NCBI GenBank assembly: GCA_043803945.1
Contig: JAZDJN010000016.1
Location: forward strand, 96,001-160,000
Length of the DNA stretch: 64,000 nt
Reading direction: 5' to 3'
Source of the DNA: a bacterium
GTDB lineage: Bacteria; Bacteroidota; Ignavibacteria; UBA10030
This document shows positions 21,591 through 33,242 of the stretch, one piece after another. Numbering within the stretch: position 1 is the first letter of the stretch; every line of letters starts with the position of its first letter. The notes beneath the pieces were generated by a model. The model made no database searches and had not been told where the DNA came from. It saw only the letters and a program-made list of their open reading frames with translations. The translations under genes were made by a program, and so were the position numbers.

Positions 21591-22877
21591 TTGGAGATCA
21601 GAATGAATTATCCGGAACCGGCCAGGCACATTGAGAATATCAAAAAAGTGAAAACAACATTAGGGCTCCTTCTCTTCACCTTCCTTCTCCAGTGTATTTC
21701 TTCTTCTATGGTACATCCACAGAGCACGATAACTCCGACGGAGTTGATTATCCGTCGTACTCTTGCTTCCTTGGAAAGCCAGCGCATTCGTTCAACGATT
21801 CAATCTCTCCAGAATTTCCAAACACGCTACCTTCATGCCTCAAATCGAGATTCAGTCGTACAGTGGATTCGGCAGCAATTTCTTTCCATGGGCTACACAA
21901 CTACTTCTGTTGATTCTTTCATCTATACTTCGGGGAGCACCATAAGTTGGCAAAAGAATATCCTTGCCACGCTTCCTGGAACCGAGACGGCAGCCGGCAG
22001 GATCGTCGTCGGTGGCCATTACGACAGTCGGGCAAATCCCGATCCTATGACCTACTCTCCGGGGGCTGATGATAACGCCAGTGGAATTGCGGCCATTCTG
22101 GAAATCGCAAGAGTGTTCAAGGAGAAAAAAATACGGCCGCAGATCCCGATTACCTTCATCGCCTTTGGCGCCGAAGAGGTTGGCTTATACGGAAGTGCGC
22201 ATCATGCACGGACTTCAAAAGAACAGAATGACAGTATACGATTCATGGTGAACCTCGATGTTATTTCCTGGTGTCAGCTACCGCCAAATCAATTCCTGGT
22301 GAAGATCAGTAAGAGCAAATCCATGCAAACGTCCACACTGAGCCAAGAGGCCGTTGATGCGACCCATCGGTTCACCTCTTTGCAAGCCAGCATTTCCGCT
22401 GGGATCAGCTCCGATGAGTTATCTTATCAAGCAGTTCAGATTCCGGCTTTGAGTTTTTATGAGAGTGTCTTCAATCCTTTGATGCACACCAAGAGCGATG
22501 TCCTTGAGAATTGCAATATCGAGTATTGCACTGAAATCGCCCGTGCAACTGCAGCATTCATCCTCAGTTCCGCACCTCCAATGACAGACGATCCTGCACT
22601 TACCGTGAGACCAGATGAGATTCAACTTTACCAGAATTATCCGAATCCATTCAACTCATCAACCACTATTGAGTTCGACATTGCAGCGCCTTCTCATGCC
22701 AGGATAAAAATTTTCAACCTACTGGGAAAAGAAGTTGCCACACTCGTAGACAAAGAAATACCGCAAGGGCGTTATGTCGTATCCTGGAAAGCACAGGATC
22801 AATCAACAGGAGTGTACTACTGTGTCCTCAATTCCGGAGGGGCAACGATGACGAAGAGAATTCTCCTCCTTCGTTAA
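21591..22877 (+). CDS. M28 family metallopeptidase with T9SS-type C-terminal sorting domain
   Basis: GGHYDS, PGADDNASG, AEEVGLYGS, NLD, MHT; C-terminal YQNYPNPFN...IFNLLGKEVATLV; start uncertain. Confidence 0.88.
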   Translation: MEIRMNYPEPARHIENIKKVKTTLGLLLFTFLLQCISSSMVHPQSTITPTELIIRRTLASLESQRIRSTIQSLQNFQTRYLHASNRDSVVQWIRQQFLSMGYTTTSVDSFIYTSGSTISWQKNILATLPGTETAAGRIVVGGHYDSRANPDPMTYSPGADDNASGIAAILEIARVFKEKKIRPQIPITFIAFGAEEVGLYGSAHHARTSKEQNDSIRFMVNLDVISWCQLPPNQFLVKISKSKSMQTSTLSQEAVDATHRFTSLQASISAGISSDELSYQAVQIPALSFYESVFNPLMHTKSDVLENCNIEYCTEIARATAAFILSSAPPMTDDPALTVRPDEIQLYQNYPNPFNSSTTIEFDIAAPSHARIKIFNLLGKEVATLVDKEIPQGRYVVSWKAQDQSTGVYYCVLNSGGATMTKRILLLR

Positions 22878-30754: not shown

Positions 30755-30850
30755 ACGATTCCACCCCCTTTCATCTACTAACAGGAAAAAAATAATAGAA
30801 GTGGCAGGAACGGAATTATCGTTGAATGATACTTCGTCCTTGTCTCGCCT

Positions 30851-31035
30851 GACTCATCCCCTAGCCCCTTCTCTTAATCAAGAGAAGGGGGATAGGGATC
30901 TCACTTTTTAAAAAGGCTTCACTCCCCCTTCTCTAATTTTTTTTAGAGAATGGGGTAAGGCCCGCTCCGCCGACCTGTACGCCGAAGTTCGAACAACAAA
31001 GGTGGAAGCAGTGGCGAGGCGGAGGGGGATGAGTC
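30851..31035. repeat. Composite palindromic REP-like element (CCCCTTCTC..GAGAAGGGG type) with inserted hairpin
   Basis: gactcatcccct...aggggatgagtc outer IR, two inner ccccttctc/gagaa(g/t)gggg hairpins, GC-rich insert at 30961-31022. Confidence 0.65.
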
Positions 31036-31066
31036 AGAACAAAAATGCGGAACACAATCAAATCAC

Positions 31067-31198
31067 TATGTAGATTCCCGAAATCAGAAAGATTTCGGGA
31101 ATCTAACGAAAGATTTATTTTAAGTCCTGAACAAGACGAAAACCGAGGCCGAGGAGCGGGCTGTCTGGATAGTTCCTATTACGGTTAGCGGTTCGGAA
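31067..31198 (-). repeat. DGR-type variable-region cassette 1 (gene-less) with stop and 15-bp hairpin
   Basis: Minus strand encodes ...ANRNRNYPDSPLLGLGFRLVQDLK*; perfect IR tagattcccgaaatc/gatttcgggaatcta at 31071-31105; 83 bp shared with cassette 2 with 2 mismatches. Confidence 0.8.
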
Positions 31199-31220
31199 GG
31201 GCATTATTTGGATTCCCCTG

Positions 31221-31355
31221 TATGTAGATTCCCGAAATCAGAAAGATTTCGGGAATCTAGCAAAAGATTTATTTTAAGTCCTGAACAAGACGAAAACCGA
31301 GGCAGTCGTTCTGGTCGACTGGAAAGCACTTATTACGGAGAGCCGAGCGGCAGTC
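31221..31355 (-). repeat. DGR-type variable-region cassette 2 (gene-less) with stop and 15-bp hairpin
   Basis: Minus strand encodes DCRSALRNKCFPVDQNDCLGFRLVQDLK*; identical hairpin at 31225-31259; 154-bp period relative to cassette 1. Confidence 0.8.
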
Positions 31356-31424
31356 CCGCCAAAAAGCGTGGCGAGACTGCCGGACAATAAAAAAAAGTGT
31401 AAAGGATAAAAGGAAAAAGGGTAA

Positions 31425-33242
31425 CTAAAGAGTTCTCGAAAGACGAAAACCGTTATTGTTGGTCCTGTTGGGCGCGTAGTCTTTAATGCGAAACGCAACA
31501 CGACAACCGTCGGCGTCGCCGCCCCACGACCCGCCGCGAACAACCCGGGCCGAGCCACTGCTTGGTCCGGATGGATTTATCTGAGAACCGGAAGAGTACG
31601 CTCCATACCAATCCTGACACCATTCCCATACATGACCACTCATATCATAGATACCAAGCTCATTTGCAGTTTTTGCTCCGACTGTGTGTGTTGTGTTACC
31701 CGAATTTGAAGAAGACCACGCTACTGTATTTACTGTACGACCGCCGCTATAGGTAAACCCCTGACCTTTATTTCCACCCCGCGCTGCGAACTCCCACTCA
31801 GCTTCAGTTGGCAATCGGTATTTATTTGTGTTCTCCTTTTGATTGAGCTTCTGAATGAACTCCTGCACATCATTCCAGCTCACTTGTTCCACAGGCCGAT
31901 TATCTCCTTTGAAGTTGCTTGGGTTGTTACCCATTATGGTCTGCCATTGTGCTTGCGTCACCTCATACTTGCCAATGTAGAACGGCTTATTTATCGTTAC
32001 CGTATGAACCGGCTTTTCATCATCCTTCCCATCATCACTTCCCATCTGAAATGTGCCAGGTTGTACAAGTACCAACTGCATGCCTATAGAATTGCTTATC
32101 GCAGGTAAATCTGTAGAGGCACTTTTTGTTGCGACCGGAGAAGCAGCCTCTTTCAATCTCTCCCAATATGCAATTTGAGTTTGTGCTTTCTCCCTCATCG
32201 TATTGACTTCGGTTGAGTATGGATCGTCTTCAGAATACGTTGTAACAAACCTTTTCCAGGCAGTCGCTTTCAAATCAGAAGAAACATTTCGCTTTTCATA
32301 AGCAAGGACATCCTGGAATGCCTTCTGCATTTCTTTCAGAGTAGTTGCCCATGCCTTTTTTACATCTTCTTCTTTCTTCGCCGCGGCGTCGAGATCAGAG
32401 AGAATGAATGGTCTTTGGGTAGGTTTGTTCGGGAGGTTGGCATCGGGGAGTTTATCATCACCAGTCACTTGCACGAAGTAAAACTCACCTTCAACAGAGG
32501 AGGCCGTCCATGGAATCTGCTTGCCGCCGGATGCTTGCTTAACGCTGCTCAAGACTGTTTTGAATACATCCTCCAATTTTACGCCCGGAGTTTTCATCTC
32601 GCGAACCAGCTCCTGAGTGTACAAGCCGTTTGCTCCCTCGCCATCGGCAGCTATGGAGCCAGGGGCAGTCGCATACGCGATGTATGTACCTGTCGGCGCT
32701 GTCATCTGCACGAGACCTCTATTTGCGCTTCTGTAGCTTCTGCCAAACGGATTATTGCGGCAAGCATCGAGAATCACAATGTTCATCCTGTTCTGGGCAG
32801 CTTCCATCTCTGCAAGAGCGTACCCCACATCAACAGCTTCAAGCTCAACATCCTGCTCTTTTGTAATGTCGGCAGCGATTGGTATCAGGTAGTTACGTCC
32901 GTTGGATTGAATACCATGTCCCGCATAATAGAAGAGACCAACACCGCTGCTTTTTATCTGTTGTCCAAACTCACGGATGATTCGTTTCATCTCTTTCTGG
33001 TTCAGGTTCTCTCCAGTCAATACTTTGAATCCGAGACTCTTCAGCGTTGCAGTTATGAGGCGTGCATCGTTGACGGGATTGCACAAGGGGGCCTCTTTGT
33101 AAGCAGCGTTACCAATAACGAGTGCGACGCGTTTTTCAGTTTGAAGTTCTTGCATTGTAGTTTTCATTCCGCGTTGCTGGCTAAAACAGAATGTTGATAT
33201 AAGCAGCAGTAGAGAAAGGAAAATTGTTCTCGCTGAAATCAT
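31425..33242 (-). CDS. Secreted caspase (peptidase C14) + FGE-sulfatase (SUMF1/CLec-fold) domain protein, putative DGR target
   Basis: Signal peptide; RVALVIGN, YYAGHG, ILDACRNNP; F.MG, YEVT..QW, P...VSW, RLPTEAEWE, DMSG.VWEW, RGGSW...GFR. Confidence 0.93.
   Translation of the reverse strand: MISARTIFLSLLLLISTFCFSQQRGMKTTMQELQTEKRVALVIGNAAYKEAPLCNPVNDARLITATLKSLGFKVLTGENLNQKEMKRIIREFGQQIKSSGVGLFYYAGHGIQSNGRNYLIPIAADITKEQDVELEAVDVGYALAEMEAAQNRMNIVILDACRNNPFGRSYRSANRGLVQMTAPTGTYIAYATAPGSIAADGEGANGLYTQELVREMKTPGVKLEDVFKTVLSSVKQASGGKQIPWTASSVEGEFYFVQVTGDDKLPDANLPNKPTQRPFILSDLDAAAKKEEDVKKAWATTLKEMQKAFQDVLAYEKRNVSSDLKATAWKRFVTTYSEDDPYSTEVNTMREKAQTQIAYWERLKEAASPVATKSASTDLPAISNSIGMQLVLVQPGTFQMGSDDGKDDEKPVHTVTINKPFYIGKYEVTQAQWQTIMGNNPSNFKGDNRPVEQVSWNDVQEFIQKLNQKENTNKYRLPTEAEWEFAARGGNKGQGFTYSGGRTVNTVAWSSSNSGNTTHTVGAKTANELGIYDMSGHVWEWCQDWYGAYSSGSQINPSGPSSGSARVVRGGSWGGDADGCRVAFRIKDYAPNRTNNNGFRLSRTL

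Follow-up and report, generated by a model that had tools for sequence, protein, structure and literature searches.

How does what looks like the variable end of a DGR target protein come to stand twice on a chromosome with no gene leading into it? The question is raised by the largest inter-ORF gap (671 nt in the ORF list) of the window, the 64-kb stretch of DNA analysed here. This gap holds two short repeated cassettes behind an intact caspase-FGE gene, each encoding the end of an FGE domain and closed by a hairpin (Table 1). The explanation we prefer, with a little more than even confidence, is that the cassettes are orphan 3'-terminal DGR target modules, independently rewritten, and that they are by-products and not a working store of sequence.

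Table 1. Features of the cassette locus and of the gene in front of it, in window coordinates.
Feature	Position	Strand	Description
Caspase-FGE gene	31425..33242	-	ORF, 605 aa, intact; hydrophobic leader, Peptidase_C14, linker, FGE-sulfatase/C-type-lectin domain
Unit 0 (the gene's own 3' module)	31353..31505	-	153 nt; Cys-Arg codons, stop 31425-31427, T-rich spacer, hairpin A
G-F-R-L 13-nt identity (gene and both cassettes)	31440..31452, 31287-31299, 31133-31145	-	spaced 153 and 154 nt
Hairpin A	31348..31382	-	14-bp G+C-rich stem, 7-nt loop, -16.3 kcal/mol, z -5.7
Cassette 1	31221..31352	-	27 codons (CRSALRNKCFPVDQNDCLGFRLVQDLK), TAA 31269-31271, 9-nt linker, hairpin B 31225-31259, 4 nt more
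Adenine-mutagenised zone of cassette 1	31302..31352	-	17 codons; from the mismatch pattern against cassette 2
Constant coding segment	31115..31147, other copy 31269-31301	-	LGFRLVQDLK and stop; identical in both cassettes
Inter-unit spacer	31199..31220	-	22 nt; unlike the sequence 5' of cassette 1 or 3' of cassette 2
Cassette 2	31067..31198	-	27 codons (FRTANRNRNYPDSPLLGLGFRLVQDLK), TAA 31115-31117, 9-nt linker, hairpin B 31071-31105, 4 nt more
ATG ORF covering cassette 2	31115..31204	-	29 codons; ORF scan

The cassettes make up a direct-repeat family of two copies (31067-31199 and 31221-31353) with 84% identity, and the repeat search agrees with the 154-bp period given in a preliminary description of this DNA. 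The pair is the sole long direct repeat in the 64-kb window. Two parts of the unit, the 21-nt constant segment and the 31-nt core of hairpin B, each occur exactly twice, against zero expected from 100 shuffles. TRF calls no array at the locus, and there is no head-to-tail repeat of the whole unit with its spacer. The 22-nt spacer matches neither flank, so plain tandem duplication fails to explain the array. In both cassettes the codons align with the last 27 FGE-domain residues of relatives of the adjacent gene, and the FGE homology stops at the same codon. Of the unit start proposed earlier the core codons stand, but the homology probably begins three codons further 5' (Cys/Phe-Arg-Ser/Thr, an extension that rests on 9 nt). 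Counting these three, a cassette probably consists of 27 codons and a stop.

Across 13 core codons there are 15 mismatches between the two copies, all at codon position 1 or 2 (the probability of no third-position change among 15 is 0.0023), and adenine is present in one copy at 13 of them (P = 0.0037 for at least 13). These are the counts of the preliminary description, and they stand above chance. Its count for the 83-nt 3' portion is also reproduced: two mismatches, both inside the 9-nt linker. The clustering of mismatches, 15 of 39 positions against 2 of 83, gives p = 3.5e-7 by Fisher's test. Changes at positions 1 and 2 reflect the AAY design of DGR templates.

The same division appears when adenines are counted over the whole unit. 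In the first 66 nt, adenine is found in one copy at 15 sites and in both at 4, and there are 4 differences that involve no adenine. The next 66 nt contain 20 adenines, every one of them shared, no site with adenine in one copy only, and two other mismatches. A 21-nt stretch free of adenine parts the mutated zone from the 3' zone of 20 intact adenines. The 4 non-adenine differences are explicable as template adenines altered in both copies. With the comparison of cassette against cassette taken as a proxy for comparison with the template, all differences in the template-covered part are thus explicable by template adenines. If the copies are modelled as drawn independently from a single template, the maximum-likelihood substitution rate is 0.55 per adenine; for the Bordetella enzyme, about 50% adenine substitution is reported both in vitro and in vivo (PMC6182149). 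At the 13 core sites that involve adenine, the adenine lies in copy 1 at 6 and in copy 2 at 7, and because of this split neither cassette can be the template, in agreement with the preliminary description. The preliminary description saw in the locus the signature of a DGR, and the pattern is indeed that expected of two VRs drawn from one adenine-rich template, with a sharp end, a constant segment and a hairpin.

The template that had been deduced from the two copies keeps most of its codons under closer comparison. Codon 7, however, has T fixed at position 1 and becomes TAT in place of WAT, and codon 14, with G at position 2 in both copies, is more parsimoniously AGC than AAC. At a position where the family conserves Arg the inferred template has CAG, and both cassettes carry Gln or Pro there; cassette 1 also carries two extra Cys. 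A template CAG at the conserved Arg position would be odd for a working target, and it counts as a point against the orphan-module explanation.

Mutagenesis ends at a sharp 3' edge and the constant segment follows, as in known DGR targets. That segment, which starts within the adenine-free stretch, is a candidate equivalent of the IMH (IMH and IMH* being separable only against a TR), and it is not composed of G+C only, unlike that of BPP-1. An inverted repeat shortly 3' of the VR, another feature of DGR targets, is supplied by hairpin B. It begins 9 nt past the TAA, and its 15-nt arms, around a 5-nt loop (TTTCT), are 100% complementary in both cassettes, so that the perfect 15-bp hairpin described earlier is upheld. 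Counted by hand, 6 of the 15 base pairs are G-C, the stem being mostly A+T, and the two copies folded as DNA give z scores of -5.7 and -5.3. Hairpin B departs from the phage consensus (a G+C-rich stem of 7-10 bp with a 4-nt GRNA loop) in having a longer stem, more A+T and a loop that is not GRNA. A high-confidence G+C-rich repeat is reported for only 34% of DGRs (PMC5758913).

Hairpin A lies about 43 nt 3' of the stop of the caspase-FGE gene, and its 3' arm reaches 5 nt into the start of cassette 1. Hairpins A and B were both considered as terminators and rejected: neither is followed by a T-run (for hairpin A, on either strand), and the three terminator-like matches of the scan lie elsewhere. 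An Rfam scan of the hairpins returns only sub-threshold, miRNA-like noise. A separate structure occupies the ~300 nt after cassette 2 (30760-31040, minus strand), where a long-range stem encloses two perfect hairpins (-110.5 kcal/mol as RNA, z -4.0). Nothing in Rfam matches this fold, which occurs once in the window. It may represent a MITE-like or REP-like element; alternatively, it may act as a composite terminator for convergent genes on its two sides.

Neither cassette forms the C-terminal end of a protein-coding target gene. Cassette 1 has no in-frame ATG, GTG or TTG. The earlier statement that the units have no gene body holds insofar as no FGE-coding sequence was found 5' of either, but it needs amending for cassette 2, which is covered by the short ATG ORF of Table 1. 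That ORF is probably fortuitous, since no promoter-like site is nearby. On the plus strand, ORFs of 60 codons (31208-31390) and 47 codons (31045-31188) each cross a hairpin and a constant segment. The 60-residue frame across cassette 1 has no match in an exhaustive search of 1.84 billion representative proteins, and with the longer of the two lacking a homologue the antisense ORFs are most likely fortuitous. The same result gives no sign of a family encoded on the other strand, or of similar units called as genes elsewhere. A search of the 40-residue frame of cassette 2 against longer proteins yields three candidates, none of them scored, and is weak evidence.

The gene in front of the cassettes matches PF00656 over residues 37-255 (E 3.6e-41) and PF03781 over residues 389-601 (E 2.7e-50), and ends in GFRLSRTL before a TAG stop. 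The best solved relative of its C-terminal domain is TvpA (2y3c), the DGR variable protein of Treponema denticola, aligned to the last residues with an E of 1.1e-38; true FGE enzymes reach about 1e-21. The PF03781 match and TvpA as closest solved relative bear out the CLec fold assigned to this gene earlier. Judged by its sequence, the domain is closer to the CLec/FGE variable proteins than to FGE enzymes, with a C-terminal variable stretch. The six residues before its Cys-Arg, GGDADG (31506-31523, minus strand), are all reachable from AAY through changes at positions 1 and 2, and they vary among the gene's closest relatives.

Gene and cassettes share a register. The unit lengths are 153 nt (unit 0), 154 nt (cassette 1) and 154 nt (cassette 2), and the Cys codon opening the gene's last 27-residue stretch stands at 31505, its counterpart in cassette 1 at 31352 (153 nt apart) and that in cassette 2 at 31198 (154 nt further). 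The distance of 153 nt places cassette 1 in frame with the caspase-FGE gene, and from this gene's TAG to the TAA of cassette 1 lie 51 codons, none of them a stop (31269-31427, minus strand). No mechanism is at hand for the common register of the three units, and chance may explain it. Read-through or recoding of the TAG into cassette 1 was considered and set aside as unlikely, TAG being ordinary in the window, where it terminates 14 of 42 Pfam-backed ORFs.

The end of the gene itself is of a different type from the cassettes, with an unrelated tail, spacer and hairpin. Alignment of the variable part of unit 0 with the cassettes is no better than chance (40 and 532 of 1000 shuffles score as high), its 3' flank is not significantly alignable to theirs, and the gene's variable part is compatible with the cassette-inferred template at 13 of 18 codons. 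The 13-nt G-F-R-L stretch is the only sequence common to gene and cassettes. Hidden homology between the 3' flank of the gene and the cassette flank was looked for and rejected, the alignments being no better than shuffles. A foreign origin of the end that the gene now has was also considered; its CRVAFR start recurs in the close relatives P0001 and P0007.

The lineage of the cassettes themselves can be followed through their tail. We used 238 homologues, combining the best 120 full-length matches of the gene with the best 120 matches of the C-terminal 54 residues of one relative, P0008 (the two sets overlap). A tail of the RLVQD type is found in 3 of the 238, namely P0002, P0008 and P0010, and all of these are among the gene's ten best full-length relatives (72%, 56% and 70% identity, respectively). 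P0008 is a complete caspase-FGE protein of 613 residues; its last ten residues are identical to the LGFRLVQDLK of the cassettes, and its C-terminus is 73% identical to cassette 2 over 26 aa (E 3e-6). The last 18 residues of its variable region are all reachable from the inferred template by adenine changes alone, a test that 7 of 239 proteins pass but that is not very specific, in a protein set biased by having half its members picked for likeness to P0008. A P0008-type tail with RLVQD in close relatives of the gene indicates that the cassettes are ends of the same caspase-FGE lineage. As the GGDADG residues suggest, variation in the gene itself probably begins 5' of the point that corresponds to the cassette starts, and the cassettes would therefore be 5'-truncated relative to a full VR.

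The machinery that would have written them would lie outside the window. No RT family is found at E<=1e-5 among the 49 ORFs of at least 100 aa in the 64-kb window, nor at E<=1 among the 8 window ORFs without any family, and there is no template repeat (TR) in the 64 kb; on both counts the ORF family scans and the repeat search agree with the preliminary description. Targets remote from the RT are reported for 45 of 372 DGRs (PMC5758913), and since such targets are documented, failure to find an RT in 64 kb does not count against a DGR, which we infer to exist elsewhere in the genome. Neither the phage nor the plasmid collections contain a match to the cassette units. A scan with the degenerate template pattern, run over a contig collection of genomes other than the window's own, finds one locus (L001), an unrelated caspase-FGE gene from a different organism; its fit to the pattern depends entirely on N positions. 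The L001 gene (1-2112 of contig CAZLOQ010000352.1) has 639 codons and comes from a MAG with the label uncultured Chitinophaga. Its contig breaks off right behind the VR-like end, 64 nt past the stop; hypervariable regions are frequent break points in assemblies. In other respects the window is ordinary chromosome (ValRS, UvrB, PGK, GAPDH, GlnA and an AcrB-type pump; 47.6% G+C; no tRNA genes). A peptidase of the M28 type encoded at 21591-22877 on the plus strand carries a C-terminal T9SS sorting domain (Por_Secre_tail), a hint of the Bacteroidota/FCB group.

Work on the Bordetella phage suggests how a cassette that encodes nothing might still be rewritten. Three things are reported to be required of a target there: an IMH, an inverted repeat close by, and homology of 8 bp or more where the upstream join is made. 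Sequence 5' of the VR can be dispensed with, and the module remains functional when placed behind a foreign gene (PMC3240598). On the orphan-module explanation, each cassette would derive from a caspase-FGE gene of the adjacent gene's family, copied without anything 5' of the last 27 codons but with stop, linker and hairpin; having kept the three cis requirements it could be rewritten although it encodes nothing. Adenine-mutagenised cDNA from a template outside the window would rewrite each cassette, and constant segment and hairpin would stay identical because the cDNA does not replace them. One truncation followed by copying accounts more economically than two truncations for the shared truncation codon. 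The copies would have been identical when made, so that at least one would have been rewritten while gene-less; rewriting of at least one cassette after the module was copied would also be why the copies differ only at template adenines. This step leans on parsimony, applied to one sequence with two copies. The units would have arisen incidentally as the gene's 3' module was duplicated or turned over, and they would presumably have no function, or at most act as decoy sinks for cDNA.

A different history would make the cassettes fossils, VRs whose diversification was confined to the time when they still ended intact genes and that a DGR since lost, or no longer using them, has left behind. With neither RT nor TR within the window this history has some appeal; the closest relative compared has only 72% identity to the gene, and cyanobacteria are reported to show remnants of TR-VR homology with no RT close by (PMC7517822). 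It would ask for two independent truncations at the same codon, however, which is unlikely, and it must contend with zero non-adenine mismatches in the template-covered part from the Ala codon on, in the constant segment and in the hairpin. In unconstrained non-coding DNA this lack of mismatches argues for recent refreshing or a very recent origin, and near-zero drift outside adenine sites fits either. The sole trace of drift is the two linker changes, covered by neither template nor hairpin; abandoned VRs in Trichodesmium are reported to gain non-adenine changes, including in the 3' homing stretch (PMC4143802). We think the fossil history unlikely, while granting it an appreciable share of the probability. 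Serial ectopic retrohoming, proposed in the preliminary description, would have each unit be an inserted cDNA copy. That both units are 5'-truncated at one point and that each follows a hairpin would suit it, and truncated classes of cDNA are known for the Bordetella enzyme (PMC6182149). But the units include linker and hairpin, whereas the Bordetella template copy is described without the following inverted repeat (PMC5758913), and reverse transcription should have left about half of the adenines in the 3' 66 nt different, yet the two copies agree at 20 of 20. An adenine-mutagenic RT therefore did not copy this part, which includes the hairpin, a conflict that makes insertion quite improbable.

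The preliminary description had also suggested a silent reservoir, with stored C-termini recombining onto the caspase gene. The cassettes are promoter-less partial copies directly behind an expressed family member, and the frame of the gene runs on without a further stop into cassette 1, exactly 51 codons downstream; the 13-nt identity at 153-nt spacing could allow an in-frame deletion giving the gene a cassette tail and hairpin. Yet 13 nt is all that is shared, the shuffle test above leaves no usable 5' homology, the gene's variable part fits the cassette template at only the 13 of 18 codons already given, and the 3' flanks are unrelated. Gln or Pro at the conserved Arg and the two extra Cys of cassette 1, moreover, look like unselected output. 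With flanking homology missing, the reservoir idea is poorly supported and we rate it as very improbable. A bolder variant would have a stack of exchangeable 3' modules in one register, from which a swap (deletion between the 13-nt G-F-R-L repeats being one route) would re-couple the gene to another template and hairpin. The gene would then toggle between a frozen and a diversifiable specificity, with stranded modules kept fresh by DGR rewriting. If true, this would place a second, recombinational layer of control above mutagenic retrohoming, but we regard it as a long shot. DGR regions are hard to assemble, and the period of 154 is near a common read length. An assembly might have chained population variants of one hypervariable region, or two loci, and doubts about tandem targets in an assembly have been voiced for Stenotrophomonas (PMC5758913). 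Each unit has its own left flank, however (hairpin A or the 22-nt spacer), and the spacer follows hairpin B, so at least one junction of hairpin B, spacer and cassette is real; the window is also free of N, and we see only a very slight chance of an artefact. An ordinary duplicate that diverged by diversifying selection or chance, with no DGR involved, might be entertained where two copies only, and no template, are seen. The missing third-position changes (p 0.0023), adenine at 13 of 15 mismatches (p 0.0037) and the sharp boundary (p 3.5e-7) all oppose it, as does the position of the units outside any gene on which selection could act, and we give it next to no credence.

If a DGR rewrites the cassettes, as the orphan-module explanation holds, they would be a natural case in which a short 3' module alone, and not a gene, defines the target. 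The module principle would then extend from one engineered phage system to a chromosomal FGE-type system with a quite different hairpin. Being free of protein-level selection, rewritten cassettes would record the raw output of the enzyme (~0.55 substitutions per adenine). Pipelines that require VRs to lie inside ORFs would miss such sites, and stranded modules could soak up cDNA. The in-register layout is a hint that VR, IMH and hairpin are gained and lost together at the ends of target genes, and such turnover would bear on the recruitment of DGRs to genes and their loss from them.

Several known systems resemble the cassettes in part. The silent cassettes of pilS/pilE and vls are promoter-less partial copies beside an expressed gene, and their flanks are shared with the expression site. 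Such systems need shared flanks, whereas the cassettes described here have 13 nt of identity with the gene. Remote CLec/FGE targets of DGRs (the TvpA family and cyanobacterial orthocaspase-FGE proteins) have the same position-1 and -2 changes at adenine sites in the last ~20 codons and the same constant end and inverted repeat after the variable part, and the cyanobacterial targets are reported to have a caspase and FGE architecture like that of the adjacent gene (PMC7517822). The cassettes differ from these in standing in tandem, in the absence of a gene body and promoter-like site, in the missing start codon of cassette 1, and in a template and RT that are out of sight. Published accounts of DGRs cover VRs on remote genes and multiple or tandem target genes; in the literature consulted, supplementary tables aside, we came across no account of modules that stand in tandem without a gene, are diversified at adenines and keep their cis elements intact. 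One of the four VRs of Pelodictyon phaeoclathratiforme BU-1 is reported to lie outside any identifiable coding region (PMC3521204). It shares with the cassettes the position outside an ORF. It is a single mention, and the cassettes differ from it in being two copies, in register with a gene end, with a hairpin each. In Thiohalocapsa PB-PSB1, the 3' CLec/VR module is reported to have been duplicated and recombined apart from N-terminal domains, leaving redundant or degraded DGR parts (bioRxiv 10.1101/2023.09.22.558884). Those modules end on genes that have an RT and accessory genes, whereas the cassettes, units of about 130 nt, are stranded without a gene. For BPP-1, an engineered minimal target in which IMH and hairpin stand behind a fragment of a kanamycin-resistance gene is reported to suffice for retrohoming (PMC3240598). 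The BPP-1 module has a 14-bp G+C-only start to its IMH and an 8-bp G+C-rich stem with a GAAA loop, against the mostly A+T stem of 15 bp and the 5-nt loop of the cassettes. It would appear, by analogy, that the cassettes are natural counterparts of that minimal target.
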